Translations under genes and position numbers: made by a program
The notes under the pieces: model-generated
The model's input: the letters and a program-made list of their open reading frames with translations, nothing else
The model's database searches: none
What the model was told of the DNA's origin: nothing
Shown here: one piece after another, positions 3,593 through 23,278 of the stretch
Layout: the number at the start of each line of letters is the position of its first letter
Position numbering within the stretch: the stretch's first letter is position 1
From: Acidimicrobiia bacterium
Lineage (GTDB): Bacteria > Actinomycetota > Acidimicrobiia > Spongiisociales > JAENVV01
DNA: 64,000 bases
Direction: 5' to 3'
NCBI GenBank assembly: GCA_041586155.1
Contig: JBFHAT010000003.1
Location: 27,115 to 91,114, forward strand

Positions 3593-5005
3593 ATGGCGAC
3601 CGTTGACATCGACCTCGGTGCTTATCAGCTCGGTTGGCACGACTCGGAAGAGGATTACGTGTTCAAGCCCCAGAAGGGCTTGAACGAAGACATCATCCGC
3701 GAGATGTCGCGGATCAAGAGCGAACCCGAATGGATGCTCGCGTTCCGGCTCAAGGCCTACCAGCGCTTCCTGCGCAAGCCCATTCCGACGTGGGGTGGTG
3801 GCGGAGCCCTGCAGGAGATCGACTTCGACGACATCTACTACTACGTCAAGCCCACCGACGGTCAAGCCAAGGACTGGGACATGGTGCCCGAGTCCATCAA
3901 GGACACGTACGAGAAGCTCGGCATTCCCGAGGCAGAGCGCAAATACCTCGCCGGCGTCACCGCCCAATACGAATCGGAAGTCGTCTATCACCGGAACCGT
4001 GAAGACCTCGAGGCGCTTGGAGTGCTGTTCTGCGACATTGACACCGCCGTACGCGATTACCCCGAGATCGTCCAGGAATACTTCGGAACCATCATCCCTC
4101 CGAACGACAACAAGTTCGCCGCGCTCAACAGCGCGGTGTGGTCGGGAGGATCCTTCATCTACGTGCCGCCAGGGGTCCACGTCGATCAGCCACTGCAAGC
4201 GTACTTCCGGATCAACGCCCAGAACATGGGCCAGTTCGAGCGCACGCTCATCATCGTCGACGAGGACGCCTTCGTGCATTATGTCGAGGGATGCAGCGCC
4301 CCGGTGTACTCGTCGGACTCGCTTCACTCCGCCGTCGTGGAGATCGTCGTCAAGCGCGGAGGGCGCTGCCGGTACACCACGATCCAGAACTGGTCGAACA
4401 ACGTCTACAACCTCGTCACCAAACGCGCCGCCACCTACGCCAACGCCACAATGGAATGGATCGACGGAAACCTCGGCTCCAAGCTCACCATGAAATACCC
4501 GGCAGTGTGGATGCTCGAACCGGGCGCCCACGGCGAAGTGCTCTCGATCGCATTCGCCGGCGAAGGGCAGCATCAAGATGCCGGCGCCAAGATGGTGCAC
4601 GCCGCGCCCAACACCACCTCCACCATCGTGTCCAAATCGATCAGCAAAGGTGGGGGACGCGCCGGCTACCGAGGCCTCGTACGAGTCGAGCCCGGAGCGG
4701 AGCACGTCAAGTCGTTCGTGCGCTGCGACGCCCTCATCCTCGACGAGAACTCCAGGTCCGACACCTATCCGTACATGGAGATCGAGGAAAACGACGCTGA
4801 GATCGGACACGAAGCGAGCGTCTCTAAAGTCGGCGAGGACCAGCTCTTCTATCTGATGAGTCGCGGCCTTTCCGAAGACCAAGCCACGTCGATGGTCGTC
4901 GCCGGATTCATCGAGCCGATCGTCAAAGAGCTGCCCATGGAGTACGCCGTCGAGATGAACAGGCTCATCGAGCTCAACATGGCGGAAGCCGGCGCAGTCG
5001 GCTGA
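3593..5005 (+). CDS. sufB: Fe-S cluster assembly protein SufB
   Basis: 470 aa. Shows the conserved SufB C-terminal beta-helix region ('[14 protein letters not shown]', '[34 protein letters not shown]', '[11 protein letters not shown]'). Confidence 0.9.
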
Positions 5006-5082
5006 TCTGCCGCCCCTCGCGGGCATCCTACGAAGCCAGAGCCGATACGGCTGAGGACGGCACGTGTGCAACATCGGCCCGA

Positions 5083-5610
5083 TCATCCACGGCGGGTGAA
5101 GCGCCGTCCCAGCCACAGCCACAGCCAGCCCAAGCCGAGGCCGGCGGTCACGTCAGTGATCCAATGGACCCCCAACAGGACCCGCGTTGCCCCGACGACC
5201 GGACCCACGGCATAGGAAGCCGCCCGTACGCCACGAGGCGCGCCGACGGCGGCGGTCACTGCCGGCCAGACCGCCGCGGCCGTTGTCGTATGTCCGCTCG
5301 GAAACGACGAGCCGGCGAAATGAGAATGATGGGGCCCCGATGGCCTCCGGCGGCGAGCGAGCAGCTTGATGCCGTTGTGCAGCAGGTTCTGCCCGGCCAC
5401 GATGACCAGCAGGCGTTGCGTTCCCGCCCAGCCCCCCGTCCTCAGCCGGTTGATGGTGGCAGCCGCCAAACCGGCGACGACCGCGCTCTCGGTCCCACCC
5501 GCCTGGGTGACGGCACGAAGCATCGGGATGTGACGTGCCTCGACGTTCTGCGCCGCCCAAGCGGCCGCTGCGTCGTCGATCTGATCGAGGACCGTCAGCA
5601 CGTTGGTCAC
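5083..5610 (-). CDS. PAP2 superfamily (phosphatidic acid phosphatase type 2-like) membrane phosphatase; start uncertain (GTG/TTG candidates at 5601/5610/5616)
   Basis: PAP2 motifs 'SFPSGHTT' and 'RVLLGVHWITDV' with hydrophobic helices. The longer ORF (to 5814) would overlap the sigma-factor gene, so a downstream alternative start is inferred. Confidence 0.6.
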   Translation of the reverse strand: MTNVLTVLDQIDDAAAAWAAQNVEARHIPMLRAVTQAGGTESAVVAGLAAATINRLRTGGWAGTQRLLVIVAGQNLLHNGIKLLARRRRPSGPHHSHFAGSSFPSGHTTTAAAVWPAVTAAVGAPRGVRAASYAVGPVVGATRVLLGVHWITDVTAGLGLGWLWLWLGRRFTRRG

Positions 5611-5650
5611 TGCCAACGAGGTGGCGCGGCCGACGGTTCGGGCCTGTCGC

Positions 5651-6712
5651 CTACAGCAGGCTCTCCAACTCGACGGCGGAACTCGGATGACGCAACTTGG
5701 CGAGCGCCCGACCCTCGATCTGACGTACCCGCTCACGGGTGAGGTTGAACATCTTCCCAACGTCGGACAACGTCCTTGGATCCGACCCGTCGAGACCGAA
5801 GCGGAGGAGAACAACCTGCTTCTCCATCTCCTCCAGCAGGCCTAGCGCGTCCAAGAGATGCTGGCGCCGCAACACCTCGGCCGCGTGGATGAACGGATCC
5901 GGCATGCGCTCGTCCTCGACGAAGTCCTGAAGCTCGGCGTCACCGTCTTCGCCGACCGGACGATCGAGCGAGACCGTATCCGATGGTGCATTCAGCGCCG
6001 CGTTGACCTTGTCGATGTCGAGGCCGCTGGCGTCGGCGATCTCTGTCCTCGTCGGAGACCTCCGAAGCTCTTCGGCCAGCAGCTGCTCTGTCTCCTGCAC
6101 CGTCCGGACCACATCCACCATGTGGACCGGCAGCCGGATCGTCCTGGCCTGGTTGCCGAGGCCCCGGGTGATCGCCTGCCTGATCCACCACGTTGCGTAC
6201 GTCGAGAACTTGAAACCCTTGCGCCAATCGAACTTCTCGACTGCCCGGATCAAGCCGAGGTTGCCTTCCTGAATCAGGTCGAGAAGATCGAGCCCCCTAC
6301 CCGAATAGCGCTTGGCGATCGAGATGACCAAGCGCAGGTTGGAACGAATGAACGCCATCTTTGCTTCTTCGCCCTGATGGACGAGGCGATACAGCTTGGC
6401 TCGATCGGTGGGGGTGAGCTTCTCGCCCGATTCCAGCTTGGCCTGAGCTCGCCGGCCGCGCTCCATCGAGCGAGCCAACCGCACTTCGTCCTCTGCAGTG
6501 AGCAGGGTGTGCCCCGAGACTCGCTCCAGATAGAGGCCCACCGTGTCTGATACGGATGCCGATTCACGTCGCCGTGTGGCCACTTGCTCCCCTTTTAAAC
6601 TGTCGGTGATCCAACCCGCGACTGGCAACGTAACATCGCTCCGGCACAACGAGCAACGGAAAAACGATGTGGTAGCGGTTCCACCAGTGGATTCCGTGAG
6701 AAATTTTGGCAA
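5651..6712 (-). CDS. RNA polymerase sigma-70 family factor, group 1/2 (SigA/SigB-like)
   Basis: Regions 1.2-4.2 are recognisable: 'DTVGLYLERVS..LLTAEDEVRLA', 'LIRAVEKFDWRKGFKFSTYATWWIRQAITR', 'TIRLPVHMVDVV', C-terminal HTH 'TLSDVGKMFNLTRERVRQIEGRAL'. At 353 aa it lacks a long N-terminal extension. Confidence 0.85.
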   Translation of the reverse strand: MPKFLTESTGGTATTSFFRCSLCRSDVTLPVAGWITDSLKGEQVATRRRESASVSDTVGLYLERVSGHTLLTAEDEVRLARSMERGRRAQAKLESGEKLTPTDRAKLYRLVHQGEEAKMAFIRSNLRLVISIAKRYSGRGLDLLDLIQEGNLGLIRAVEKFDWRKGFKFSTYATWWIRQAITRGLGNQARTIRLPVHMVDVVRTVQETEQLLAEELRRSPTRTEIADASGLDIDKVNAALNAPSDTVSLDRPVGEDGDAELQDFVEDERMPDPFIHAAEVLRRQHLLDALGLLEEMEKQVVLLRFGLDGSDPRTLSDVGKMFNLTRERVRQIEGRALAKLRHPSSAVELESLL

Positions 6713-6754
6713 TACGCCGTCTACCTCTCGCTGCGTGTTCAGAACTCACGAATA

Positions 6755-7480
6755 GTGGGCGAATCGGTCGTTGCGTCGTCGGCTGCCAAGCTGACTCCCG
6801 TGGACCGCCGGATCCGACTGCTGAACGAACGCCTCATTGGATGTCGGCGCTGCCCGAGACTGGTCGAATGGCGGCAGGCTGCAGCGCTCTCGCCACCTGC
6901 CCGGTACCGCGCCGAGCCGTATTGGGCTCGACCCGTACCCGGGTTCGGCGACGAGCGCGGCCCCGTCCTGATCGTGGGCCTCGCTCCGGCCGCCCACGGT
7001 GCCAACCGGACCGGGCGCATGTTCACGGGTGATCGCTCGGGCGATTGGCTCTTCTCGGCGCTGGCGGAAGTGGGGCTCGCCAACCAACCCGAGTCGACCG
7101 ATGTCGGCGATGGCCTGACGCTGGAGGGCGCCTATGTGACGGCGTCGGTCCGATGCGCGCCGCCTCAGAACCGGCCTACTGCGGACGAGCGAGACAACTG
7201 CCGGCCCTGGTTGGAGGAGGAATTCGACCTCATCGACCCCAAGGTGGTTCTGTGTCTCGGCGGATTCGCATTCGACCAGACGCTTCGGCTCCTGGGCGAG
7301 AGAGGAGCACCCTTGCCACGCCCTCGCCCGCGGTTCGGCCACGGCATCGAACTAGAACTCGGTGAGCCGTGGCCGGTGGTAGTCGCCTCGTACCATCCAT
7401 CGCAGCAGAACACCTTCACCGGTCGACTCACCCGCCAAATGACGGTCGAGGTGTTGCGTCAGACGATGCGGCATCGGTAG
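6755..7480 (+). CDS. uracil-DNA glycosylase superfamily protein (family 4/5, UdgB-like)
   Basis: 'GLAPAAHGANRTGRMFTGDRSG' motif-A region, 'CRRCPRL' cluster ligands, 'VLCLGGFAF' and the C-terminal 'HPSQQNT' motif B. Confidence 0.75.
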   Translation: MGESVVASSAAKLTPVDRRIRLLNERLIGCRRCPRLVEWRQAAALSPPARYRAEPYWARPVPGFGDERGPVLIVGLAPAAHGANRTGRMFTGDRSGDWLFSALAEVGLANQPESTDVGDGLTLEGAYVTASVRCAPPQNRPTADERDNCRPWLEEEFDLIDPKVVLCLGGFAFDQTLRLLGERGAPLPRPRPRFGHGIELELGEPWPVVVASYHPSQQNTFTGRLTRQMTVEVLRQTMRHR

Positions 7481-7491
7481 CGTGCCGCGCC

Positions 7492-8667
7492 ATGTCGAAT
7501 CGTCGCCCCGAAACCGATCTCGTGAGGGCCGGGCTGGAGCGGAGCCGCTATCTCGAAACGGCCGAGCCGCTCTACCTCACGTCGGGCTACGTGTACGAAT
7601 CGGCTGCCGAAGCCGAAGCCGCCTTTGCCGGGGAGGTGGACCGGTACATCTACTCCCGATACGGAAACCCAACGGTGGCCATCTTCGAAGAGAGGCTGCG
7701 TTTGCTGGAGGGAGCCGAGGCCTGTCAGGCAACCGGGTCCGGAATGGGTGCCGTGTTCACAGCGATGGCGGCGACGCTGCGGACGGGGGATCGGGTCGTC
7801 GCCGCCCGGGATCTGTTCGGCTCGTGCTACATCGTCCTCGACGAGTTGCTCCCGCGCTGGGGAATCGAGACGGAGTTCGTGGACGGGTCGGACACAGATC
7901 AGTGGGCTGATGCGCTGTCACGGGAGGCCGCACTCGTGTTCTTCGAGACACCATCGAATCCGATGCAGCAGCTGGTGGACATCGAGACCGTCGCCGAGCT
8001 CGCCCATGCCGCCGGCGCGCAGGTCATGGTCGACAACGTCTTTGCAACACCTCTCGGGCAGCAGCCTCTGGCGCTCGGGGCAGACATCGTCGTCCATTCG
8101 GCCACCAAGCACGTCGATGGGCAGGGCAGGGCCCTGGGTGGCGCGATCTGCGCCAGCGAAGAGTTCATCCACGGCGATCTCCGCCCATTCGTACGCCACA
8201 CCGGTCCTGCCATGAGCCCCTTCAACGCTTGGCTACTCGCCAAGTCGCTGGAGACGATGCCCGTGCGGGTGGGAGCGATGGCGGCGGCTGCGTCGGCTCT
8301 TGCCGACTGGCTGTCCCAGCATGACCGAGTCGTCCGCGTGATCTATCCAGGTCACTTCACTCACCCCCAGCACGACTTGGCACGGCGGCAGATGTCGATG
8401 GGTGGGACGGTCGTGACGATCGAACTCGAGGGCGGCAAACCCGAGTCCTTTCGATTCCTCGATGCACTGGAGCTGATCGACATCTCCAACAACCTCGGTG
8501 ATGCGAAATCCCTCGCCACCCACCCGGCTTCGACCACCCACCGCCGGCTCGGCGAGGCGGTGAGAGCAGCAATGGGCATCACTGATGCGATCGTGCGGAT
8601 CTCGGTTGGGCTCGAGCACCTCGCCGACCTACAGGAAGACGTCGACCGGGCTCTCCTTGCTTCATGA
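7492..8667 (+). CDS. metZ: O-succinylhomoserine sulfhydrylase / cystathionine gamma-synthase family PLP enzyme
   Basis: Cys/Met-metabolism PLP-dependent family ('SGYVYESAAEAEAAF', 'YSRYGNPT', 'VVHSATKHVDGQG'). ATG at 7492 chosen over the upstream in-frame ORF start. Confidence 0.8.
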   Translation: MSNRRPETDLVRAGLERSRYLETAEPLYLTSGYVYESAAEAEAAFAGEVDRYIYSRYGNPTVAIFEERLRLLEGAEACQATGSGMGAVFTAMAATLRTGDRVVAARDLFGSCYIVLDELLPRWGIETEFVDGSDTDQWADALSREAALVFFETPSNPMQQLVDIETVAELAHAAGAQVMVDNVFATPLGQQPLALGADIVVHSATKHVDGQGRALGGAICASEEFIHGDLRPFVRHTGPAMSPFNAWLLAKSLETMPVRVGAMAAAASALADWLSQHDRVVRVIYPGHFTHPQHDLARRQMSMGGTVVTIELEGGKPESFRFLDALELIDISNNLGDAKSLATHPASTTHRRLGEAVRAAMGITDAIVRISVGLEHLADLQEDVDRALLAS

Positions 8668-8701
8668 GCGGGTTCGCCCTACCCAGGCGGCCGCCGGTAC
8701 C

Positions 8702-9982
8702 ATGACATCGACTGCGAGGAACGGCCCCGACGTGCTTTCACTGGAACAATCCACCTACGAACGCGTCCTGGACGCGACGCCCGCAGCAGCTCGTCCCGCC
8801 CGTTCAGATGCCATCGCTCGCTTCTCCGCTGCGACCATGCCGACCGGCAAGGAGGAAGCGTGGCGGTATGTCGAGCTGGACTTCGACCTGGCCGAATTTG
8901 GCCTGCCCGAAGCACCCGGTACGCCCTCACCTTCACCGTTCTCGCTCGCAGCCGAGGACCGGGTGGCCTCGGTGAGCCTCGTCGACGGATTCGTCACCGA
9001 TGCCACCTCGGGCAACGGACTCACCATCACCTCACTGCAAGGAGCACCAGACCTCGTGGCCGGACCAAAGGGTGCGGCCGATGTGTTCGCAGCAGCTCAG
9101 GCGGCGCTCGCCCGCGACGGAGTACGCATCGAGGCTGCTCGTGGACACGGCGACGGGCGCCCCGTCGTCGTCGATGTCGCGGCGACTCAGTCCGAGTCGC
9201 TGTCCCTGCCGCAGATCCACATCGAGGTCGCCACCGGCGCCGAGCTGGCCGTCGTCGTGGTGTTTCACTCGGCCGAGCATCGTATGGTGGTCTCGCCGAA
9301 CATCGTCGCCAGCGTGGCCGATGGCGGTCACCTGCGGATGACGACCGTCCAAGCCTGGGGAAGCAAGACGCGTGCGATCGGGTTCCAGCGATACGGCCTC
9401 GGTCGGGATGCCACCTTGCGGCTCGGCGAAATCGGATTGGGTGGAGCGCTGGCGCGACTCGATCTGGGGATCGATCTCGACGGCGATGGCTCGACGTCGG
9501 ACACCACTGGCATCTACTTCGGGGATGGCTCTCAGGTTCTCGACTATCGCGTCGTCGTGAACCATCGGGGGCGGAACACCGCTTCGGACGTTCACCTCAG
9601 AGGGGCGGTCGAGGACGACGCAGAATCGATCTTCACCGGTTTGCTGAAGATCTGGCCGGCCGCCACCAACACGTCGACATTCGAGCAGAACCGCAACCTG
9701 GTCCTCTCCGATGGAGCCAAGGCCCATTCGGTACCCAACCTGGAGATCTTGTGCGACGACGTCGTGTGCGGGCATGGCTCCACCGTTGGACCCTTCGAAT
9801 CTGAGCATCTCTACTACCTGGAGTCACGTGGTCTGGGTCGCGAGCGGGCCGAGCGCCTGCTCCTGCGTGGGTTTTTCGAAGAGGTGATCGGCCGGCTCCC
9901 CGCGCCGCAGCTGGCCGACGCGGTCCGGGAAGCGGTCAACGCCAAGTTCGTTGCCGCCCAACGGGAAGGACGGATTGCATGA
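8702..9982 (+). CDS. sufD: Fe-S cluster assembly protein SufD
   Basis: SufD beta-helix C-terminal region ('NHRGRNTASDVHLRGAV', 'NLEILCDDVVCGHGSTVGPFESEHLYYLESRGL'). ATG at 8702 avoids overlap with metZ. Confidence 0.85.
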   Translation: MTSTARNGPDVLSLEQSTYERVLDATPAAARPARSDAIARFSAATMPTGKEEAWRYVELDFDLAEFGLPEAPGTPSPSPFSLAAEDRVASVSLVDGFVTDATSGNGLTITSLQGAPDLVAGPKGAADVFAAAQAALARDGVRIEAARGHGDGRPVVVDVAATQSESLSLPQIHIEVATGAELAVVVVFHSAEHRMVVSPNIVASVADGGHLRMTTVQAWGSKTRAIGFQRYGLGRDATLRLGEIGLGGALARLDLGIDLDGDGSTSDTTGIYFGDGSQVLDYRVVVNHRGRNTASDVHLRGAVEDDAESIFTGLLKIWPAATNTSTFEQNRNLVLSDGAKAHSVPNLEILCDDVVCGHGSTVGPFESEHLYYLESRGLGRERAERLLLRGFFEEVIGRLPAPQLADAVREAVNAKFVAAQREGRIA

Positions 9983-10296
9983 CGTGGGTGCGGATCGGTG
10001 CGCTCGAGTCGCTCCCTTCAGGTAGGGGCGTACGCGTCGAGACGGGGGATCACCGCATCGCCCTCTTCCGGATCGACGACTCGGTGTATGCGATCGGCGA
10101 CCGATGTTCTCACGCCGAAGCGTCGCTGGCGGAAGGCGAGGTCTTCGACACCGATGTGGAGTGCCCGCGTCACGGCTCAGAGTTCAGCCTCGTGACGGGC
10201 GAGCCGGGTTCGTTGCCCGCCACCCGGCCCGTGCCCACCTACGAAGTCCGGGTGGTCGACGGCGAAGTCGAGTTGTACATCGGGGATCGGCCATGA
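9979..10296 (+). CDS. Rieske [2Fe-2S] domain ferredoxin-like protein
   Basis: 'CSHAEASL...CPRHGSEF' Rieske ligand boxes. 105 aa, 4-nt overlap with sufD. Confidence 0.75.
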   Translation: MTWVRIGALESLPSGRGVRVETGDHRIALFRIDDSVYAIGDRCSHAEASLAEGEVFDTDVECPRHGSEFSLVTGEPGSLPATRPVPTYEVRVVDGEVELYIGDRP

Positions 10297-11087
10297 GCAT
10301 GGCGTTGCGCGTGGCGGATCTCACCGCGTCGGTCGGCGATGTCGAAATTCTGAGAGGCGTCGACCTCGAGGTTCCATTCGGCGAGATCCACGCCATCATG
10401 GGTCCCAACGGGTCAGGAAAATCCACGCTGAGCCACGTGCTCACCGGCCGAGAAGGCTACGAGGTGACCGGGACGGCGGAGCTGGCAGGCAATCCTCTGC
10501 TCGACAAGCCCGTAAGCGAACGGGCGCAGCTGGGGTTGCTGCAGGCGTTCCAATACCCGGTGGAGGTTCCCGGCGTGGCCCTCGGACGGTTGGTACGCGA
10601 GGCTGCCGAAGAGCGAGGGCTGGCGGACGTCGACGAGCGGATCGAGGCAGCCGCAAAACGGTTTTCGATGCAGGAGTTCCTCGACCGTGCGGTCAACGAC
10701 GATCTCTCGGGCGGCGAGAAGAAACGGTCCGAGATCTTTCAGCTGGCGGTCTTGGCACCCAAGGTCGCCGTGCTCGACGAGATCGACTCCGGCCTCGACA
10801 TCGACGCCGTCCGTCAGGTCGCCGAGGCCGTAGAGGCGATGCGCAGTCCCGAAGTGGGCGTGATCATCGTCACTCACTACAACCGGATCCTTCGCTACCT
10901 CCAGCCCGACAAGATCCACATCATGCTGGACGGAAAGATCGTCGAATCCGGAGGCCCGGAGCTCGCCGATGAACTCGAGGCGGGCGGATACGAAGCCGTG
11001 CGGGCGAGGCTGGGTCTCGAGGCCCCTACGCCACCGGTGCGCCCCAAAGCGGCCAGCGAGTACTTCACCGACACTCCATTCGATTGA
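10293..11087 (+). CDS. SufC-like ABC ATPase (divergent second SufC paralog)
   Basis: Walker A 'GPNGSGKST', 'FQYPVEVPGV', signature 'LSGGEKKR', Walker B 'LDEIDSGLDIDA', 'VTHYNRIL'. ATGA overlap with the Rieske gene. Confidence 0.8.
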   Translation: MSMALRVADLTASVGDVEILRGVDLEVPFGEIHAIMGPNGSGKSTLSHVLTGREGYEVTGTAELAGNPLLDKPVSERAQLGLLQAFQYPVEVPGVALGRLVREAAEERGLADVDERIEAAAKRFSMQEFLDRAVNDDLSGGEKKRSEIFQLAVLAPKVAVLDEIDSGLDIDAVRQVAEAVEAMRSPEVGVIIVTHYNRILRYLQPDKIHIMLDGKIVESGGPELADELEAGGYEAVRARLGLEAPTPPVRPKAASEYFTDTPFD

Positions 11088-11815
11088 TGGATCTGTCGGT
11101 CCAAGTCTGGGGGGACGGCGACCGAAGGGCTCTCCTCCTCCACGGCATCTCCTCCAATGCCGCCGGATGGTTCCGGGTGGGCGCAACCATGGCCTCTTGG
11201 GGATACCGAGTCGTAGCCCCCGATCTTCGCGGCCACGGCAAGAGCCCCGCTGCCGACTCGTATCGCCTGGAAGATCACGCCGATGACGTTGCCGCCCTGG
11301 GAACTGAATGGGAGGTCGTCCTGGGTCATTCGATGGGGGCCGCAGTAGCGTTGCTGCTGGCCCATGACTCGTTTTGCCGCAGCCTGATCCTCGAAGATCC
11401 GGCGTTGGTGGTGGTCGACTCCGACATGACACGCGACTGGATGCTCGCGCCCTACCGCAATGAGATCTCTGCCCACGCCGTTGCAGCCGACAATCCCACA
11501 TGGCACCCGGAAGATGCCCGTATCAAGGCCGAGGCGCTGCTTCAATCGAGCCCCGAGATGGTAGAACGGACCCTCGTCGACAACCCGAGTTGGAACGTGA
11601 TGAAGGAGGTGCTCGCGGTGGAGGTGCCCACGTTGCTGCTGGTCGCTGATCTCGCCAGTGGAGGGCTCGTTCCCGTGGAGCTCGGCGAGTCGATCGCCGC
11701 CCACAATCCCGCCGTCGTGTATCGCCACATTCCCGGTGCGAGTCACTCGATGCATCGCGACCAGTTCGACCGCACGATGAGAGAGATCGGCTCTTGGCTC
11801 GGCCATGGCGCATGA
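11084..11815 (+). CDS. alpha/beta hydrolase fold protein
   Basis: 'LLLHGISSNAAGW', nucleophile elbow 'GHSMGA', C-terminal His. 4-nt overlap with the upstream gene. Confidence 0.7.
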   Translation: MMDLSVQVWGDGDRRALLLHGISSNAAGWFRVGATMASWGYRVVAPDLRGHGKSPAADSYRLEDHADDVAALGTEWEVVLGHSMGAAVALLLAHDSFCRSLILEDPALVVVDSDMTRDWMLAPYRNEISAHAVAADNPTWHPEDARIKAEALLQSSPEMVERTLVDNPSWNVMKEVLAVEVPTLLLVADLASGGLVPVELGESIAAHNPAVVYRHIPGASHSMHRDQFDRTMREIGSWLGHGA

Positions 11816-12911
11816 TCGAGCCGAAGCCTGGCTGCGGCAGCTGACTGCGCTGCCCACTGCCCCGGGCCACGAAGGAGAGGTGATCCGGTGGGTCCGGTCG
11901 TGGGCGAAGCGCCGACCCGATCTCGAACTGTCCGCCGACCGGGCGGGCAACCTCTTCATCACACAACGCCTGCCGCTTCGGGCGAGGCCGCTGTGGATCA
12001 CCGCGCATCTCGATCACCCGGCTTTTGTCGTGACGGACGTCGGCGGCAGCTCCGTCGAATGGGAGTTTCGGGGTGGGGTGCGGCCCGCCTACTTCGACGA
12101 CGCGTTGATCGAGTTCCATCGAGGGGCGAAGCCTCAGGGAAAGGCCCGAATCGTCGAGCGCAGCTCCGACGCCCGTACCGGCGTCGCTCGGCTGGTGAGA
12201 GGCTCAGCTACACCGTCGACCGGAGACATCGGCCGATGGTGGTTTCGGGAGGATGCCCTTGGTGTGAGACGCGGACGCCTGCGCGCGCATGCCTGCGACG
12301 ACCTCGCAGGCGTGGCAGCGGCGTTGTCGGTGCTCGACGAGCTGCGATCCGGCGCCGAGCATGGGCACATCGGGGTTCTTCTGACGAGGGCCGAGGAGGT
12401 CGGCTTCGTCGGGGCGATTGCAGCAGCGAAGGGCAGCCGGCTGTCTCCGTCGTCGCGGCTGATCTGTCTGGAGATGTCCCGCAGCTTTTCCGACGCTCCC
12501 ATCGGCGGAGGTCCGGTCGTCCGGGTCGGCGACGCCTCCAGCGTCTTCAGCCCGCAGCTCACCAACGCGCTGACCACCGCAGCCGGTGCGTGGTCGAGCG
12601 ACCACGGACGCCCCCACCAGCGCAAGCTCATGGCAGGCGGTTCGTGCGAGGCAACTGCGTTCGCTGCCTACGGATTCGAGGCTGCGTGCCTATGCCTCCC
12701 TCTCGGCAACTACCACAACATGGGCCGGCTCGACGAGGTGGAGAAGGGCCGCACACCGGCCAGGGTGGGCCCCGAGGAGATCGCACTCCGAGACTGGCAT
12801 GGTTTGGTCGATTTCCTCGTCGACCGAGTTGGAGCGTTGGAGCACGTGCAACCGGGTCTGCGGGAGCGGCTCGATGAGCTGTTCGAAGCGGGTCGGCCGA
12901 TCCTCGACTAG
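11805..12911 (+). CDS. M42-family metallo-aminopeptidase (FrvX/glutamyl aminopeptidase-like)
   Basis: 'AHLDHPAF', 'ACDDLAGV', 'TRAEEVGFVGA' metal-ligand motifs typical of M42 peptidases. Confidence 0.6.
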   Translation: MAHDRAEAWLRQLTALPTAPGHEGEVIRWVRSWAKRRPDLELSADRAGNLFITQRLPLRARPLWITAHLDHPAFVVTDVGGSSVEWEFRGGVRPAYFDDALIEFHRGAKPQGKARIVERSSDARTGVARLVRGSATPSTGDIGRWWFREDALGVRRGRLRAHACDDLAGVAAALSVLDELRSGAEHGHIGVLLTRAEEVGFVGAIAAAKGSRLSPSSRLICLEMSRSFSDAPIGGGPVVRVGDASSVFSPQLTNALTTAAGAWSSDHGRPHQRKLMAGGSCEATAFAAYGFEAACLCLPLGNYHNMGRLDEVEKGRTPARVGPEEIALRDWHGLVDFLVDRVGALEHVQPGLRERLDELFEAGRPILD

Positions 12912-13106
12912 CGATGCCAGTTCGTCGATTTCTCTCGAAGCGCTGATTCCGCCCGATTCTCCGATTAGCGATGCCAGGTCGTCGAATCGGCCCGATTCTC
13001 CGACTAGCGATGCCAGGTCGTCGAATCCGCCCGATTCTCCGACTAGCGATGCCAGGTCGTCGAATCCGCCCGATTCTCCGACTAGCGATGCCAGGTCGTC
13101 GAATCG
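12903..13106. repeat. 39-bp tandem repeat x5 (first copy carries a 16-nt insertion) in convergent intergenic space
   Basis: Unit CCCGATTCTCCGACTAGCGATGCCAGGTCGTCGAATCCG with anchors at 12909, 12964, 13003, 13042, 13081. Each unit has a CTAG and junction dyads GAATCGG-C-CCGATTC. Confidence 0.85.
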
Positions 13107-14979: not shown

Positions 14980-15053
14980 GATGTCGACCCTATCTTCGCG
15001 TCTAGCCGCCTCGGGACGCGGCCTAGGCTTTGCTACCACAGTCGAGGAGCTAC

Positions 15054-16445
15054 ATGGATTTCCGGACGGAGAAGGACTCGATGGGCGAGGTGAAGGTCCC
15101 TGCCGGTGCCTACTACGGAGCGTCGACGCAGCGGGCGGTCGAGAATTTCCCCATCTCGCAGCTCAGGTTCGGCAGACGCTTCATCTGGGCGCTCGGGTTG
15201 ATCAAAGGTTCAGCTGCAGCCGTCAACGGCCGGCAGGGCAACATCGAAGCCGACAAGGCGGAAGCAATCGCTGCGGCGGCCACCGAGGTGATGTCGGGCG
15301 AGCTGGACGAGCATTTCGTGCTGGACATCTTCCAGACCGGTTCGGGTACGTCGTCGAACACGAACGCCAACGAGGTCATCGCCAACCGTGCCGCGGAGCT
15401 GTTGGGTGGTGCGATTGGGGACCGGCTCGTCCACCCGAACGACGACGTGAACTACGGACAGTCGTCCAACGACGTGATTCCCACGGCGATCCACGTTTCT
15501 GCGTATGCAGCGATCGCAGAGGGGCTTATGCCCGCCCTGGAGCGCTTGGCGAATGCGCTCGACCACAAGGCCGACGAGTTCGCCGACGTGGTGAAGTCCG
15601 GTCGCACCCATTTGATGGATGCGACGCCCGTCACGCTCGGGCAAGAGTTCTCAGGATATGCGACCCAAGTGCGCAACGGTCACCGCCGAGTGAGCGAAGC
15701 AGCGGCAGAGCTGAGGGAGCTGGCACTGGGCGGGACCGCCGTCGGGACGGGACTGAACGCACCCCCCGGATTCGCGGAGCAGACGATTGCCGAGATGTCG
15801 GCACGGTCGGGGTTTGGATTCGTCGAGGCGCCGAATCACTTCGAGGCGCAGGCAGCCAAAGACGCGGCGGTGTCGGTGTCCGGAGCATTGCGCACCGTAG
15901 CTGTGTCGCTGTTCAAGATCGTCAACGACCTCCGGTGGTTGTCGTCGGGACCACGCACCGGGATCGCCGAGATCTCGCTGCCCTCGCTGCAGCCGGGCTC
16001 TTCGATCATGCCCGGCAAGGTCAACCCGGTCATGCCCGAGATGGTGATGCAGGTCGTGGCCCAAGTGATCGGCAACGATTCGACCATTGCCTGGGCGGGA
16101 GCCAACGGCAACTTCGAGCTCAATGTCATGATGCCGGTGCTGGCACACAACCTGCTGGAGTCCATCGAGCTCCTCACCTCCGCCAGCGAGACACTCGTTG
16201 AACGCTGTATCGATGGCATCACCGCCAACGAGGACCGGGCTCGCGAGCTGGTCGAGCGCAACATAATCGTGGTCACGGCTCTGAACCCTCACATCGGTTA
16301 CGACAAGGGCGCAGAGATCGCCAAAGAGGCGTTTGCCACCGGACGCTCGGTGCGCGCCGTCGCGCTGGAAAAAGGGGTCATGAGCGCCGAAGAGCTCGAC
16401 GCCGCGCTCGATCTCAAGAAGATGACCGAGGGTGGGGTGGTCTGA
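15054..16445 (+). CDS. fumC: class II fumarate hydratase
   Basis: '[28 protein letters not shown]', '[11 protein letters not shown]' signature, ~463 aa. Confidence 0.9.
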
Positions 16446-16470
16446 GTCCTCGCAGAGGAAAGGGTTGATT

Positions 16471-16489: not shown

Positions 16490-16499
16490 GCGTGCCGCC

Positions 16500-16781
16500 A
16501 TGGACGACGAGTTCGATTGGCGATCCCTCGGCGAGTGTCGAAATCACGACCCGGAGCTCTTCTTTTCCGGCTCCCATCCCCACGGTGATGCTGCAGCCAA
16601 GCTCGTGTGCCAATCGTGTCCGGTCCGTACGGAGTGCCTGACATACGCGGTGGTCACCGCCCAGCGCTACGGGGTTTGGGGAGGCGTGGGCGCAGACGAG
16701 CGTGCGCTTCTTCGACGCCGGTACGTCGCTGCGATCCGATCCGGCGCCGACTTCGAGCGAGCCCTGGAAGCCGCCGTCTGA
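16500..16781 (+). CDS. WhiB-family (Wbl) transcriptional regulator
   Basis: Four Cys 'C..C(x)..C..C' ('LGECRNHDPELFF', 'AKLVCQSCPVRTECL') and 'GVWGG' turn. 93 aa. Confidence 0.85.
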   Translation: MDDEFDWRSLGECRNHDPELFFSGSHPHGDAAAKLVCQSCPVRTECLTYAVVTAQRYGVWGGVGADERALLRRRYVAAIRSGADFERALEAAV

Positions 16782-16798
16782 CCGTATAGGCTGCACCC

Positions 16799-17731: not shown

Positions 17732-17766
17732 CGCCATCCGGACGTTGAAGACGCACGATCCGGTCG

Positions 17767-18313
17767 GTGACCGCGTTTGCGCTCGTGCTTATGGTGGTCG
17801 GGACTTCACCCTCCGCCCGAGCTTGTTCCTGCTCGATGCCGACCGCAGCCGTTATGGCGACACATCACGACGCGGCGTTCATCGGTGAGCTGGACAATCG
17901 TCGGCGAGCCGGACGCGACGATGCAGGCATGGCGCAGGACCGTTTCTCCTTCGCGGTCGAGGGTTGGCTGGATAGAACTGGGTCCGGCGGCGGCGGTGTT
18001 CTCACCCGATAGCGGGGCCGCCTGCGGCATCGAGCCGGCGATCGATGATCGAGCCGGGATCCTCCTGGCCGGCGACGAGGCGGCGTACGAATCGGGCCTG
18101 TGTTCCACACTGGACGCCGCACTTGCCCGGCGTGAGCTCGTGTTGTTGCCTGTGGGTGCCCCACGTGTGTCGATGGCGAGCGCCGAAAGGCAGGCGGTCG
18201 GGCCCGGCGGAATGGAACCGCAGCCTGTCGCGATGGGCATCGGCGGCGGGCACCTGCTGCTGGCCGGCAGCATCGCATGGGCGCGCCGCCGAGCTCACTT
18301 GCAGTATTCGTAG
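17767..18313 (+). pseudogene. secreted TIMP/NTR-module-like protein, reading frame interrupted (frameshift or sequencing error ~17900-18000)
   Basis: Frame 1 gives signal peptide 'MTAFALVLMVVGTSPSARA' followed by 'CSCSMP..AAFIGEL' and stops at 18010. Frame 2 continues with 'AVFSPDSGAACGIEPAIDDRAGILLAGDEAAYESGLCSTLD', matching TIMP N-domain '[25 protein letters not shown]...ITLCDF'. Confidence 0.45.
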
Positions 18314-20826
18314 GGCTCGAAGTCCAACTCCTCGAGGGAGAATCCAGGGATCCCCAGCAAGGGCTCGAGCCATCCCTCCATCGCCGAGACGCTTCCGTCG
18401 GAGGTTTCGACACGAACGGTGTTGATCCACTCGTCCCAGTCGCATCGCTCGGTGTGGTTGGCAGGAGGGCGCAAACCGCCCAGGTCGTTGACGAATGGCG
18501 GTTCTGAGTCGAGTAGGCCTTCTCGGCGAAGCGCGTCGAGCGCCGCGAGCTGGGTTTCGTACGCCAGGGCATTGAGGACCAGATACCCCTCGACCAGGGC
18601 CTGCTCGGCGTTGTCTGACGGCAGAACCGATCCCACCGCTTTGTTGCGGATCTGACCCCACAGAAAGCTGTTCAGCGCTTTGGCGCCCAGCCTGGCGGCG
18701 CCGGTGAGGCCCAGCTTGGTGATGACCATGGTGCCGATGCCGCCGGTGGCGAGCCCCACGACCGCGGCGAAGACGCCTTTGGCCAGTGCGATGGCGGCGT
18801 CGCGTTCTCTCCCGTCGATGTATGAGTTCGTCAGGTACGCGTCTACGGTGATGCCTTCGATGGTGCCCAACTCGTAGTTGAGGCGTGTATCGGCGCCGTC
18901 TGGCGTGACTTGCCCTTGGATGGCCTGATACCGGAACGCCCCCACCATCATGAGGAACAGGTCGGCGACGTCGCGGTCCCGATTGATGTACTCCAGAACG
19001 TTGGCCAGCTGGGCTGGCTCCAGGTGAGCGGCGAGCAGACTTGGGCTCAGCTCCGAACTGGCGCCGCGGCCGCCTTCCAGCGTCAACAACGACGCGAGGT
19101 GCCCTTCCATCATGAGCGGGAGCGCCAGGAGGTAGCCGGGATGGTAGCTGAGCTGGTTGCGATCGAGGCCGGTGATCGTCGTCAAGGCGAGCGCCGCGAG
19201 GGCGACGGCATTGGGGTCGTCGGGCTGCGAACCGAGCGTGCCGAGAGCGGCTGCCATGGCGTCGCCGTCATCGCCGTACGACCAGATCGGCTCCATGAGC
19301 ATCGACCAGCCGTCATCGATCCACGGCAGATCGGAGGTATCGAGCGCGCGCATGTGATCGACGAAGTCGACCACGGCGTCGGGCCCGGCCGCTGCCAGGG
19401 CGCGCAGACCGTAGACACGAAGATCCTCTACCGTGCCCCGGTCGACCGTCACGTCGTACCAGGCATCGAGCGACGGACCTGCTCCCGGGTCCGCCATCGC
19501 CACGACGACCTGCGCCATGTACTCGATCAGGAATTCGGTGTCGTAACGTCCCCAATTGAGGAGCACGGATGCATCCATCCTGCCGCTTCGCCAGTCGGCC
19601 AAGTCGGCCGGCCTGATGGTGAGGCCCGGGGCCTGAGTGGCCGCCGCCAGGGCGTTCCCGAATCCGTCCAGGTGGTTGGCCCAGGCGTAGTCGCTGAGGG
19701 GAACGTATCCGTCGAACGCCCTCATGTATGTGTCAGGGAGACCTGCCAGGCCGTCGGGCCCCAACGCATTGAAGAACGACACGGCGACGGTGGGCTGACC
19801 AGAGAAGTGTTCCATCTGGTCGGCGAGCAGGCCGAGAAGGCCAGCGTCGAGTTCGGCGGAGGCCATGCCGTACAGATCGGCGAGGAGGATCCCGATCGAT
19901 GCGTCGCGCGTTTCGGCCGGTAGGTCGAAGGTGTACAAGCGATCGATCAGCAGCCTGTGGTCCGGGCGTGGCAGCGCTGCCCGAACTTCCTCGACCCAAC
20001 GGATCAGATCCGCGCGCTCCCCTGCAAGCTCGACGAGACGAATGTACGTGTCGTTGGACTGCCACCACGGCAAGTCTGCCTGTGCCTCCAGCTCCGAGCG
20101 GAGGTCGCCGATCTCAACATCGACGCGCGCCAGACGCACGGTCAGCGCCGCGATCGGTGACGACTCCCAGGCGGCCCGGTAGTCGGCCGTGAAATAGTGG
20201 CTTGGCAGACCCGCCTCTCGGGGCGAGAGGCCGCTCGTCATCGCGTCCAGGGCGCGTTGAAAGGTAGTGGGGTCGAACCCGACCTCTCGGAGGGCGATCG
20301 CCAAGTCCTCGAGGGTGCCTTCGATCGAGGAACCGACGTTCACGTAGCGAGCGAGCGATCGGAGCTCGGCCAGGCGATCTTGGAGCGCTTCAACCGATGA
20401 AGCGGAACTCGTGGTCAGCCTTGAAGCCAGCTCGTCCCTGGCGGCGATCATGTCATCGAGGATGGGATCGTTGTCGGACCCTGACCAATTCGCGATCCGG
20501 CGGTCGAGGTCCGCCGAAAGGGCCGCCATGTCCGAGAGGTCATCGCCGGCGAGCGTGTCGAACCGCCGAGGGTCGAAGCTGGGCACCGTCACCACCGCTG
20601 CGATGGGATCGAGGTGCTCGACGAACGCGGCCCGCGCATCCAGGTCGGTTGCCCGATCCCGCAGCTCGCTCACCGTCGTGGACAACGCACGGGTGCTGGG
20701 AGAGGTGACGCCGACCAGAGCGAGGACCTCCAACAGGTCTGACGTGGTGCGGCCGAGATCATCGGCATGTCTGCGCAGCGATCCGGCTCGCAATCGCAGC
20801 TCCGCAGGATCGAGCGCATAGATCAT
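18295..20826 (-). CDS. large hypothetical protein (843 aa), helical N-terminus, one predicted Gly-rich TM segment near residue 690
   Basis: Long ORF with high GC3. No recognisable catalytic motif. Candidate own promoter: TTGACA -35, 16 bp before the start codon, and a TAACGT -10-like hexamer 18 bp downstream of it, ending ~8 nt before the ATG. Confidence 0.5.
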   Translation of the reverse strand: MIYALDPAELRLRAGSLRRHADDLGRTTSDLLEVLALVGVTSPSTRALSTTVSELRDRATDLDARAAFVEHLDPIAAVVTVPSFDPRRFDTLAGDDLSDMAALSADLDRRIANWSGSDNDPILDDMIAARDELASRLTTSSASSVEALQDRLAELRSLARYVNVGSSIEGTLEDLAIALREVGFDPTTFQRALDAMTSGLSPREAGLPSHYFTADYRAAWESSPIAALTVRLARVDVEIGDLRSELEAQADLPWWQSNDTYIRLVELAGERADLIRWVEEVRAALPRPDHRLLIDRLYTFDLPAETRDASIGILLADLYGMASAELDAGLLGLLADQMEHFSGQPTVAVSFFNALGPDGLAGLPDTYMRAFDGYVPLSDYAWANHLDGFGNALAAATQAPGLTIRPADLADWRSGRMDASVLLNWGRYDTEFLIEYMAQVVVAMADPGAGPSLDAWYDVTVDRGTVEDLRVYGLRALAAAGPDAVVDFVDHMRALDTSDLPWIDDGWSMLMEPIWSYGDDGDAMAAALGTLGSQPDDPNAVALAALALTTITGLDRNQLSYHPGYLLALPLMMEGHLASLLTLEGGRGASSELSPSLLAAHLEPAQLANVLEYINRDRDVADLFLMMVGAFRYQAIQGQVTPDGADTRLNYELGTIEGITVDAYLTNSYIDGRERDAAIALAKGVFAAVVGLATGGIGTMVITKLGLTGAARLGAKALNSFLWGQIRNKAVGSVLPSDNAEQALVEGYLVLNALAYETQLAALDALRREGLLDSEPPFVNDLGGLRPPANHTERCDWDEWINTVRVETSDGSVSAMEGWLEPLLGIPGFSLEELDFEPYEYCK

Positions 20827-20841
20827 GCAGTGACGTTATCA

Positions 20842-20857
20842 AACGATAATTATCGTT
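20842..20857. promoter_or_regulatory. 16-bp perfect AT-rich palindrome AACGATAATTATCGTT between candidate -35 and -10 of the 843-aa gene
   Basis: Flanked by an 11-bp direct repeat GTT(A/G)TCAAACG. The whole sufU / 843-aa-gene intergenic region is 32 bp. Confidence 0.4.
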
Positions 20858-20858
20858 G

Positions 20859-21305
20859 TCAAACGTTTGTCTGGGTGAGGGCCAGGTCGAGCGTCTCCCA
20901 TCCGAGCAGTGCGCATTTGATGCGGACCGGGTACCGCCGAACCCCATGCAGCGCCTCGAGGTCGCCCAAGTAGCGGCCCGGCTCCTCGGGGTCGATCGGC
21001 GCCTGGTCGTCGGATGTCATCATGCGCTTGAAGCGCTCGGCCAGCGCTTGGATCTCTTGGACCGACCTGCCTTCGACTGCCTGTGACATCATCGATGCCG
21101 AGCTCTGGCTGATGGAACATCCCTGCCCGCGAACGGAAACCCCACTCACTCGGTCGCCATCCAGCGTGAGGTCTAACTCGATCCGATCACCACACAGAGG
21201 GTTGTCACCCTCGGCATGGGCGTCCACCCGGTCGAGAGGTTTGCGATTGCGGGGGTTGCGATAGTGGTCGAGCACCACTTCGCGGTAGAGGTCTTCAAGG
21301 GCCAT
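20859..21305 (-). CDS. sufU: SufU/NifU-like Fe-S cluster scaffold (sulfur acceptor)
   Basis: 'NPLCGDRIELD', 'GQGCSISQSSASMM', 'RIKCALLGWETL' conserved Cys ligands. 148 aa. Confidence 0.85.
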   Translation of the reverse strand: MALEDLYREVVLDHYRNPRNRKPLDRVDAHAEGDNPLCGDRIELDLTLDGDRVSGVSVRGQGCSISQSSASMMSQAVEGRSVQEIQALAERFKRMMTSDDQAPIDPEEPGRYLGDLEALHGVRRYPVRIKCALLGWETLDLALTQTNV

Positions 21306-21315
21306 CGAGTTCAGG

Positions 21316-22539
21316 CTAGTGCGGCCCTACTCCAAACAATTCCGAAGCGTGATGCAACGCATCGACCAGTTGGTCGACGTCCTGTTCGTCCGAATATACG
21401 GAGAACGATGCTCGAGCGGTGGCGGGTACCCCGAGGTGATCCATGAGCGGTCGCGCACAGTGGTGGCCGGCCCGCACCGCCACGTGGTGCTCATCCAAGA
21501 TCGTGGCGAGGTCGTGGGCATGCACGTCGGCCAGAGTGAACGAGATCACCCCACCCCGCCGTTCGACGTTGTTCGGGCCGTACACGGTGAGATGATCGAA
21601 CTCGCCGAGACGGTCCAACGCGTATCGGGTGAGCTCCATGTCGTGATCACGAACCGTGCCCATCCCCAGCTCGCCGAGATAGTCGACCGCAGCCCCCAAA
21701 CCGATCGCTTCCACGATCGGTGGCGTTCCGGCCTCGAGCTTCTGGGGAACCGGCGCCCAGGTAGATTCGTAGAGGCCCACATCGGCGATCATCTCACCGC
21801 CCCCCTCGAACGGCTCCAGGGCCTCGAGGAGTTCGAGCCGGCCCCACAGCACGCCGACGCCGGTTGGTCCCAGCATCTTGTGTGCCGAGAATGCCAAGAA
21901 ATCGGCACCGAGCGACTTCACATCCACCGGGGCGTGCGGAACCAGTTGGGCGCCGTCGACGATCAGGATCGCGCCCGCATCTTCTGCCATCGTCCGGATC
22001 GGTCCGATCGATGGGATCGTTCCGAGGACATTCGACATGCCGGTGACAGAGATCACCGCAATGCGCTCGTCGACGAGGTGGTTCATCGCTGCCAGGTCCA
22101 ACTCGTATCGGTCGTCGAGCGGCGCGAAGACCAGCTCTGCCCCGGTACGCGCCGCCACCATCTGCCAGGGCACCAGGTTGGCGTGGTGTTCCATCTGTGT
22201 GAGCAGGATCCGGTCGCCCGGACGGAGACGCGCGCCGGCCCATGCGAACGCCAGCATGTTGAGGCTGGTCGTGGTCCCGCGCGTGAATACGATCTCCCGA
22301 GGGTCCGCCGCCCCGATGAACGCTGCCACCTTGGCGCGTGCGGCCTCGTAGGCTTCGGTGGCCATCTCGGAGAGACGGTAGGCGCCTCGATGAACGTTGG
22401 AGTAGTACGACGAATACGCCTCCGTCATCACGTCGAGCACCTGTTGCGGCTTTTGAGACGACGCAGCCGAGTCGAGGAACGCCAGCCGCGGCCCGGTGCC
22501 GTTCAGGATCGGAAAGTCACGCCTTCGGTCAACCCGCAT
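21316..22539 (-). CDS. sufS: cysteine desulfurase SufS
   Basis: Class V aminotransferase: 'FSAHKMLGPTGVGVLWG' (PLP Lys), 'RAGHHCARPL' active-site Cys loop. Start likely the internal 'MRVDRRRDFPIL'. Confidence 0.9.
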   Translation of the reverse strand: MRVDRRRDFPILNGTGPRLAFLDSAASSQKPQQVLDVMTEAYSSYYSNVHRGAYRLSEMATEAYEAARAKVAAFIGAADPREIVFTRGTTTSLNMLAFAWAGARLRPGDRILLTQMEHHANLVPWQMVAARTGAELVFAPLDDRYELDLAAMNHLVDERIAVISVTGMSNVLGTIPSIGPIRTMAEDAGAILIVDGAQLVPHAPVDVKSLGADFLAFSAHKMLGPTGVGVLWGRLELLEALEPFEGGGEMIADVGLYESTWAPVPQKLEAGTPPIVEAIGLGAAVDYLGELGMGTVRDHDMELTRYALDRLGEFDHLTVYGPNNVERRGGVISFTLADVHAHDLATILDEHHVAVRAGHHCARPLMDHLGVPATARASFSVYSDEQDVDQLVDALHHASELFGVGPH

Positions 22540-23278
22540 GCGTGCGGAACGCGTCGTAGCCATCCTCCTCCAAGGTCTGGGCCAGGTCTGGTCCGCCCGA
22601 GGTCAGGATACGCCCATCCATGAAGATGTGGACGACGTGCGGTTCGATGTAGTCGAGCAGTCGCTGGTAGTGGGTGATGATCAGGAATCCTCGCTCGGGG
22701 GAGGTCAAGCGGCCGATGCCCTCAGCCACGATACGAAGGGCATCGATATCCAGACCGCTGTCGGTTTCGTCCATGATCGCCAGGGCGGGCTCGAGTACGG
22801 CCATCTGTAGGACTTCGTTGCGCTTTCGTTCCCCACCCGAGAACCCCTCGTTGAGGTAGCGGTCGGCAAATCCCGAGTCCATGCCGAGATCAGCCATCGC
22901 CTCCATGACTTTGAGACGGAGCTCGAGCACCGTGTAGTCGATCCCACTCTTGTTCGAGAGCGCTTGGCGAAGAAACTGGATCACCGAGACTCCGGGGATC
23001 GTCTCGGGGTGTTGGAAGGCCAAGAACATGCCCCGGGTGCCGCGGTCATTGGGGGACAGCTCGCCGACGTCCTCGCCCTCGAAGCGAATCGAGCCCGCCG
23101 TGATCTCGTAGGCGGGATGACCCATCAGGACCTTGGCCAGCGTCGATTTGCCAGACCCATTCGGACCCATCAACGCATGAACCTCGCCCCGCTCGACGGT
23201 GAGGTCGACGCCCCTCAGGATGGGGACGCCGTCGACCGAGGCGTGCAAGCCGTCGATCTCCAACAAAGGGGCGCTCAT
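22529..23278 (-). CDS. sufC: Fe-S cluster assembly ATPase SufC (canonical copy)
   Basis: 'GPNGSGKSTLAKVL', 'LAFQHPETIPGVSV', 'FSGGERKRNEVLQ', 'MDETDSGLDIDAL', 'ITHYQRLLDYI'. Confidence 0.9.
   Translation of the reverse strand: MSAPLLEIDGLHASVDGVPILRGVDLTVERGEVHALMGPNGSGKSTLAKVLMGHPAYEITAGSIRFEGEDVGELSPNDRGTRGMFLAFQHPETIPGVSVIQFLRQALSNKSGIDYTVLELRLKVMEAMADLGMDSGFADRYLNEGFSGGERKRNEVLQMAVLEPALAIMDETDSGLDIDALRIVAEGIGRLTSPERGFLIITHYQRLLDYIEPHVVHIFMDGRILTSGGPDLAQTLEEDGYDAFRTHAG

Follow-up and report, generated by a model that had tools for sequence, protein, structure and literature searches.

Dispersed SUF genes and two SufC paralogs as the normal arrangement in the class Acidimicrobiia

The stretch of DNA considered here, referred to as the window, is 64,000 nt of contig JBFHAT010000003.1 from an Acidimicrobiia bacterium (GenBank assembly GCA_041586155.1, forward-strand positions 27,115 to 91,114). 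The system in question is its gene set for iron-sulfur cluster assembly (SUF), which is distributed over three units: an isolated sufB, a sufD-Rieske-sufC' unit and, on the opposite strand, a sufC2-sufS-sufU unit. This split layout, with two different SufC proteins, is the conserved norm of the class Acidimicrobiia rather than a local rearrangement. The reading favored here, with a probability of roughly 0.55, is that the three units encode a single SUF machine descended from an ancestral operon, whose SufC would have been duplicated and the copies specialized for different partners.

Three SUF units and their conservation

Open reading frames (ORFs) of the window were scored against NCBI equivalog models with curated cut-offs (TIGR series) and against Pfam. 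Seven SUF genes were recognized, all except SufD above the curated family thresholds:

3593-5005, forward strand: sufB, scaffold subunit, 714 bits on TIGR01980 (cut-off 346), downstream of gltB, with the start of sufD 3.7 kb further on
8702-9982, forward strand: sufD, 220.5 bits on TIGR01981 (cut-off 222) and 216 bits on Pfam SUFBD_core
9979-10296, forward strand: Rieske [2Fe-2S] ferredoxin of 105 residues, 67.8 bits on Pfam Rieske
10293-11087, forward strand: sufC', 264 aa, 269.4 bits on TIGR01978 (cut-off 212.8)
20859-21305, reverse strand: sufU, sulfur-transfer protein, 156 bits on TIGR01994 (cut-off 92.5)
21316-22563, reverse strand: sufS, cysteine desulfurase, 539 bits on TIGR01979 (cut-off 475)
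22529-23278, reverse strand: sufC2, 249 aa, 321.6 bits on TIGR01978, leading the sufC2-sufS-sufU unit

By these scores the groups named in a preliminary description of this DNA (sufB, sufD-Rieske-sufC' and an opposite-strand sufC-sufS-sufU) are all real, and both sufC genes encode true SufC rather than generic ABC ATPases, at 269 and 322 bits against a cut-off of 212.8. The longest ORF for sufD, 8585-9982, overlaps metZ, which stops at 8667, and the ATG at 8702 is the most likely start. The SufD protein reaches only 91 bits on the SufB model, compared with 220.5 on its own. In the Rieske protein the cluster ligands CSH...CPRH (CxH...CxxH) are intact, and ATGA overlaps join its gene to sufD upstream and to sufC' downstream. 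Overlapping stop and start codons in fact run from sufD through the Rieske gene, sufC' and an alpha/beta hydrolase gene to an M42/M20 peptidase gene, so the five probably share one transcript. On the opposite strand, sufS and sufU are separated by 10 bp, and the partner of SufS is SufU-type, not IscU-type. The neighborhood has a single copy of each SUF component, with the exception of SufC.

The layout was followed through the class by mapping the window proteins with tblastn onto 80 Acidimicrobiia loci, one genome per species (L001-L080). Nearly all of the 80 have the three-part layout with both SufC paralogs. The conserved order is gltB - sufB - ... - sigma-70 factor (opposite strand) - uracil-DNA glycosylase (UDG) - sufD - Rieske - sufC' - M42 - fumC, continuing on the opposite strand with sufU - sufS - sufC2 - ybaK - LLM oxidoreductase. 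SufB is 86-94% identical across these loci and always in the same position. A distant freshwater, acIV-like genome (L082) has the same three SUF units among quite different intervening genes, and another locus, L084, also has the layout, except that sufB is not seen there. In L084 a called gene of 350 aa at 18265-19317 (reverse strand) has both a Rieske and a SufC'-like ABC domain, which may reflect either a true gene fusion or a frameshift introduced by a noisy assembly.

The preliminary description had treated the genes as split relative to a canonical actinobacterial operon, and had read this as a rearrangement in this genome. The first part stands. A Mycobacterium genome (L081) has a single operon, HTH(SufR)-sufB-sufD-sufC-sufS-sufU-sufT (HTH, helix-turn-helix), and a metagenome contig (L085) shares this operon but has a Rieske gene separating sufD from sufC. 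The second part does not, since the same layout recurs in nearly all of the 80 genomes and in L082 and L084. Around its own sufC, each of the Acidimicrobiia fragments retains the canonical order (sufD-Rieske-sufC' and sufC2-sufS-sufU), and the Rieske gene keeps its place throughout the related loci as well as in the L085 operon. The SufB of the L085 operon (5610-8192) carries an intein, with Hint, Intein_splicing and LAGLIDADG matches. For annotation, the comparison means that scattering of the SUF genes in Acidimicrobiia is the normal state of a complete system and no sign of degradation.

The two SufC paralogs

SufC' and SufC2 are 46% identical to each other. Both align end to end with SufC proteins of known structure, SufC' at 241 bits with that of Thermus and 207 bits with that of E. 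coli, and SufC2 at 294 and 247 bits, respectively. The motifs GPNGSGKST, FQ(Y/H)P, (L/F)SGGE(K/R)KR, (L/M)DE(I/T)DSGLD and THY are found in both and are also conserved across both clades. The Walker A/B, signature and H-loop motifs attributed earlier to the two proteins are thus borne out by alignment; the Walker B glutamate, the Q-loop and the D-loop are intact as well, and both paralogs are predicted to be catalytically intact.

SufC' is the derived copy and SufC2 the conservative one, on the grounds of faster evolution, more clade-fixed changes, a deletion in the helical subdomain and a terminal motif. The mean distance among SufC' sequences is 0.39 and among SufC2 sequences 0.23, making SufC' about 1.6 times faster evolving; SufC2 is 73-84% identical across the related loci. 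Compared with the SufC of the two canonical operons, SufC2 is 52-57% identical and SufC' 50-51%. There are 24 positions at which the two clades are fixed for differing residues, and where the outgroup state is clear, SufC' has changed at nine of these and SufC2 at five. Changes in the SufC' clade include NEGFSGGE to NDDLSGGE, directly ahead of the signature motif, and a deletion of six residues relative to SufC2 in the helical subdomain, which in ABC ATPases is the part that contacts the partner protein.

The divergent copy at 10293 had also been credited with a C-terminal extension. This is real, with a length of 23 residues:

11016-11084, forward strand: C-terminal extension of SufC', a variable Pro/Ala-rich linker followed by EYFTDTPFD at 11058-11084

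The terminal motif, (E/D)(F/Y)FTDTPFD, is conserved at the extreme C-terminus in 118 homologs. Most SufC' homologs have 260-270 residues, which makes the extension a trait of the family; the named ones among the closest are all labelled Acidimicrobiia or, more broadly, Actinomycetota. In the window and all loci together (1.3 Mb), FTDTPFD-type motifs are found in SufC' tails only, plus one additional copy in L035, a stray second tail motif at about 8235, some 1.3 kb downstream of sufC'. An AlphaFold2 model of SufC' has a mean pLDDT (predicted local distance difference test score) of 90 and a confident ATPase core; values of 68, 61 and 49 in the tail are low, as would be expected for a flexible docking peptide.

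Sub-functionalization of the two SufCs, proposed in the preliminary description, is consistent with the separate conservation of both clades. The same data bear on a simpler possibility, that the two are interchangeable isoforms, either of which can occupy either site, kept for dosage or for particular conditions (iron, oxidative stress). Both do retain every catalytic motif, and both score as SufC. Their 46% identity, the fixed differences between clades, the helical-subdomain indel and the terminal motif confined to one paralog all speak against it, as do the retention of both copies in essentially all sampled genomes and the presence in relatives of the same putative operator on both, with no differential regulation (see below). 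Interchangeability is therefore considered unlikely.

The origin of the pair was approached with a distance-based neighbor-joining tree of 138 SufCs (200 bootstraps), most of which carry no taxon label. Bootstrap support is 100% for the SufC' clade, 98-100% for the mycobacterial group, which the L085 SufC joins at 73%, and 60-66% for the SufC2 clade. The mean distance between SufC' and SufC2 is 0.88, and mycobacterial SufC lies at 0.83 from the former and 0.73 from the latter, so the split between the two paralogs is old. Identities to the proteins of the canonical operons fall in the usual order, SufB > SufC > SufS > SufU > SufD, in both modules, and so do not point to a foreign origin. In the proposed history, an ancestral actinobacterial operon, sufR-sufB-sufD-Rieske-sufC-sufS-sufU-sufT, would have broken next to sufC, leaving one sufC copy on each fragment (sufD-Rieske-sufC' and sufC2-sufS-sufU), after which sufR and sufT would have been lost from the locus. 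The ancestral gene order that each fragment keeps around its own sufC is what would be expected if the operon broke at a duplicated sufC.

Horizontal transfer offers a different history, in which one module, most plausibly sufC2-sufS-sufU, replaced the native sufS-sufU, and the two SufCs are xenologs. A sister relationship of the SufC clades indeed lacks support, and the distance between them is as great as that to other Actinomycetota, but the deep nodes of the tree are simply unresolved. SufC2, the copy most plausibly acquired under this scheme, is the closer of the two to canonical-operon SufC; the identities of SufS and SufU to actinobacterial proteins are as expected for vertical descent, and the sufC-sufS-sufU order matches that of the ancestral operon. 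Of the explanations considered here, this appears the least probable.

A shared putative operator and a proposed machine

A palindrome was first noticed in the sufB upstream regions of related loci, and then followed with a pattern search and a position weight matrix (PWM). Its consensus, 26 bp in length, is GGTATTTC-CACTAY-N4-RTAGTG-GAAATACC. It precedes sufB in 17 of 21 usable loci, sufD in 54 of 72 and sufC2 in 38 of 49, lying about 31 bp from the gene in the last case. At a PWM score of at least 15 bits there are 113 matches in 1.28 Mb, 109 of which were automatically assigned to sufB, sufD and sufC2 promoters. A more lenient gene assignment left over just one of the 113, and this one, too, closely precedes a sufD, albeit one matched only in part. 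Because these sites also served to train the matrix, it is where they lie that counts as independent evidence. Among loci outside the training set, L082 has a site at all three units (24-34 bits) and L084 at two. With one operator at all three promoters, the sufB, sufD and sufC2 units would form one regulon in most Acidimicrobiia.

In the window, ATTTC-CACTAY-N4-RTAGTG-GAAAT is absent at all three units, and the best PWM score anywhere is 2.9 bits, compared with a median of 35 for real sites. The closest relative, L001, lacks the operator as well (best score -1.5), and the next, L062, keeps two of the three sites. This pattern points to stepwise loss of the operator in this sublineage. The earlier suggestion of separately regulated modules is contradicted in relatives, which carry the same operator at all three units, as in one regulon, and its absence from all three in the window points to lost control instead of control specific to each module. 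A replacement motif common to the promoters of the window and L001 was also sought; only -10-like hexamers, TACGAT/TACCAT, turned up, with no convincing common operator.

That SufR is missing from the window, as first described, is upheld by Pfam, tblastn, signature-motif and operator-box searches alike. Among the approximately 60 ORFs of the window there is no Pfam match to a SufR-like HTH family, nor any to DUF59 (SufT) or an A-type carrier. With the mycobacterial SufR and SufT of L081 as queries, tblastn gave no match in the window or in any related locus; the SufR signature motif pattern was not found in the window or the related loci either, and the 10 kb around the suf genes are free of sufR in every locus. 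The window contains no match to the SufR box CAAC-N6-GTTG, and a check of the ORFs in the gaps of related loci for a regulator found none. Neither of the marks of a SufR-regulated suf operon, a linked sufR and a known SufR operator, is thus present in the window.

Two intergenic regions lie where relatives carry the operator:

3293-3592, forward strand: gltB-sufB intergenic region, strongly structured (RNA fold z = -6.3), with the suf operator of relatives absent
23279-23356, no strand: divergent sufC2/ybaK intergenic region, with no operator in the PWM scan, unlike relatives

The gltB-sufB region contains a long stem at about 3304-3361, partly common to L001, followed by two copies of a double-hairpin unit of about 55 nt, at 3363-3417 and 3441-3497. 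Each copy contains two perfect hairpins, GTGCTCGC/GCGAGCAC and GAGAATCC/GGATTCTC, and the unit occurs nowhere else in the window. A search of positions 1-26000 against Rfam gave nothing relevant, the sole match being a chance snoRNA (E = 0.83), and neither a promoter/terminator scan nor Tandem Repeats Finder picked up anything upstream of sufB. Possible identities for the double-hairpin region are an array of terminators, a REP-like element and a new regulatory leader. A further element, at 20827-20858, occupies the gap from the sufU stop codon to an 843-residue ORF. It contains a perfect palindrome of 16 bp, rich in A and T, AACGATAATTATCGTT, with flanking TTGACA-like and TGATAAC-like elements, and resembles a promoter and operator of its own for that downstream ORF.

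The favored reading, of one machine with specialized SufCs, can be laid out as follows. SufB and SufD would form a scaffold, with SufC' sitting on SufD and SufC2 on SufB. The first placement is proposed because SufC' is gene-linked to sufD, evolves fast as SufD does and has an altered helical subdomain, and the second because SufB and SufC2 are both slow-evolving; gene linkage as such ties SufC' to sufD and SufC2 to sufS-sufU, and binding of SufB or SufD by either SufC is a proposal. On ATP binding, SufC' and SufC2 would close as a heterodimer. SufS-SufU would deliver persulfide sulfur, the Rieske protein would supply electrons, and the terminal peptide of SufC' would recruit a further partner. 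In this genome, loss of the operator would have left the system constitutive or under other control. A more specific version is offered only tentatively: the SufC heterodimer (SufC2-SufB, SufC'-SufD) would be obligate, the FTDTPFD tail a docking peptide, for which the Rieske protein, SufS-SufU and SufB are candidate targets, and the three promoters a new suf regulon whose regulator was lost in this sublineage.

The main rival holds that there are two separate sub-machines and no mixed scaffold. One would be of SufB2C2 type, built with SufC2 and fed by SufS-SufU; the other would be a SufC'2D2-like accessory complex with the Rieske protein, serving for example in iron or electron delivery. Such a division would follow the linkage of sufD-Rieske-sufC' as opposed to sufC2-sufS-sufU, with sufB alone, and it would match the evolutionary rates, SufB and SufC2 being the slow pair and SufD and SufC' the fast one; moreover, E. 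coli and archaea provide precedents for SufB2C2 and SufC2D2 complexes. However, sufB is not linked to sufC2, and the common operator at the three units in relatives argues for one co-expressed system. Two sub-machines, the accessory complex included, are accordingly rated as rather improbable, and interchangeable isoforms or an acquired module as less likely again.

Several observations count against a single machine with SufCs duplicated within the lineage. In a mirror-tree analysis meant to assign each SufC to SufB or SufD, partial correlations were 0.2-0.7 for every pairing, and just as high for M42, an unrelated control, so they did not discriminate between partners. SufD, at 220.5 bits, falls marginally below its equivalog cut-off of 222. 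The gene counts cover suf neighborhoods, and further copies of sufB or sufD, as well as sufR or sufT away from the suf genes, could lie elsewhere in the genomes. In the tree there is no supported sister relationship between the SufC' and SufC2 clades, with deep nodes unresolved, and the distance between them is comparable to that from mycobacterial SufC, so duplication within the lineage is a proposal. Finally, the palindrome is only a putative operator.

Neighboring genes and comparison with known systems

The remaining features in and around the forward-strand units are:

within 5083-8667, reverse strand: PAP2, between sufB and sufD
5651-6712, reverse strand: SigB-like group-2 sigma-70 factor
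6755-7480, forward strand: family-4 UDG
7369-8667 (start at about 7490), forward strand: MetZ, O-succinylhomoserine sulfhydrylase, 629 bits on NF005870
11084-11815, forward strand: alpha/beta hydrolase (Pfam), directly after sufC'
11805-12911, forward strand: M42/M20 peptidase (Pfam), after the alpha/beta hydrolase

Profile searches agree with the identities first given to the genes between sufB and sufD (PAP2, sigma factor, UDG and metZ), and the unrelated hydrolases said to follow sufC' correspond to the alpha/beta hydrolase and the peptidase. The sigma factor (61-94% identity) and UDG lie between sufB and sufD in most relatives, and in a divergent locus, L083, a sigma-70 gene also adjoins suf genes. 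In most of the related loci, likewise, the gene after sufC' is M42; the alpha/beta hydrolase is found there only in L001. The position of metZ between UDG and sufD is peculiar to this genome, with no counterpart in the 80 related loci, and is that of the sufD operator and promoter in relatives.

Class-wide synteny with the suf units extends to the glutamate synthase large subunit (17-3292), the family-4 UDG and the class II fumarase FumC (15030-16445). Glutamate synthase and family-4 UDG are iron-sulfur (Fe-S) enzymes, and FumC is an Fe-S-independent fumarase; the association of such Fe-S-related neighbors with the suf units may be coincidental. The 843-residue ORF downstream of sufU (18295-20826, reverse strand) has good coding statistics, with a G+C fraction at third codon positions (GC3) of 0.81; it matches nothing in Pfam or NCBIfam, is missing from all 80 related loci, and is an orphan gene inserted immediately after sufU. 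The sole significant Pfam match of a 372-residue ORF at 13082-14200 (reverse strand) is a C-terminal CysS_C domain (cysteinyl-tRNA ligase anticodon-binding), and this ORF is common only to L001 and L062. Further along the window are two methylmalonyl-CoA mutase paralogs (37352-39016 and 43110-44744), with propionyl-CoA carboxylase-like genes nearby (46139-49456), and the F420 biosynthesis genes cofE and cofD (55627-57233). An F420-dependent LLM oxidoreductase adjoins sufC2.

The SUF genes of the window share with the canonical Mycobacterium-type operon the components SufB, SufD, SufC, SufS and SufU, and the orders sufD-Rieske-sufC (the Rieske gene being present in only some operons) and sufC-sufS-sufU. 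They differ from it in being arranged as three units over 20 kb and on both strands, in having sufC twice, and in having sufR and sufT unlinked. A literature search on Rieske genes in suf operons returned nothing relevant.

For regulation, the nearest comparison is with SufR. In M. tuberculosis, SufR combines a winged helix with an AT-hook, and reads flanking A/T tracts while tolerating variation in the core (bioRxiv 10.64898/2025.12.26.696629). The palindrome of the Acidimicrobiia resembles the M. tuberculosis operator in having a core palindrome with A/T tracts on both sides, about 18 bp apart, and a comparable site is found in L081. The core itself, CACTAY-N4-RTAGTG, differs from those of known SufR operators (CAAC-N6-GTTG in cyanobacteria and Streptomyces, ACACT-N5-TGTGA in M. 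tuberculosis), and unlike them the palindrome is found at three separate promoters, with no sufR within 10 kb in any locus. Regulation of suf genes in most Gram-positives without SufR was called unknown in a 2021 review (PMC8593673), and an operator shared by three dispersed promoters provides a handle on suf regulation where there is no linked sufR. Its loss from this genome and its nearest relative provides a natural contrast for asking what the regulation is for.

The SufBC2D scaffold is asymmetric, in that SufB and SufD each bear one SufC, and in model organisms these two SufCs are the same protein; this identity makes the roles of the two ATPase sites hard to separate. The window resembles E. 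coli SufBC2D (PDB 5AWF; SufC2D2, 2ZU0) in the end-to-end alignment of its SufCs, in their ATPase motifs, and in having one SufB and one SufD in the neighborhood. In place of two copies of a single SufC, two different SufCs are available here, and the C-terminal motif of SufC' is absent from the E. coli, Thermus and mycobacterial proteins. Extra SufC genes are known elsewhere, in Paenibacillus (sufC2D2B2) and in Methanosarcina (a second sufCB; PMC8038749, PMC10500019), but there the extra SufC brings a SufB or SufD of its own, whereas here the two share the single SufB and SufD of their neighborhood. Literature searches on two SufC paralogs, or on SufC in Acidimicrobiia, found no description of this arrangement. 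A class with two distinct, intact SufCs beside a single SufB and SufD is one in which each site could be mutated or deleted alone, and an obligate heterodimer, if that is what they form, would be a natural separation-of-function version of the machine, in which the two ATPase sites could be studied independently.

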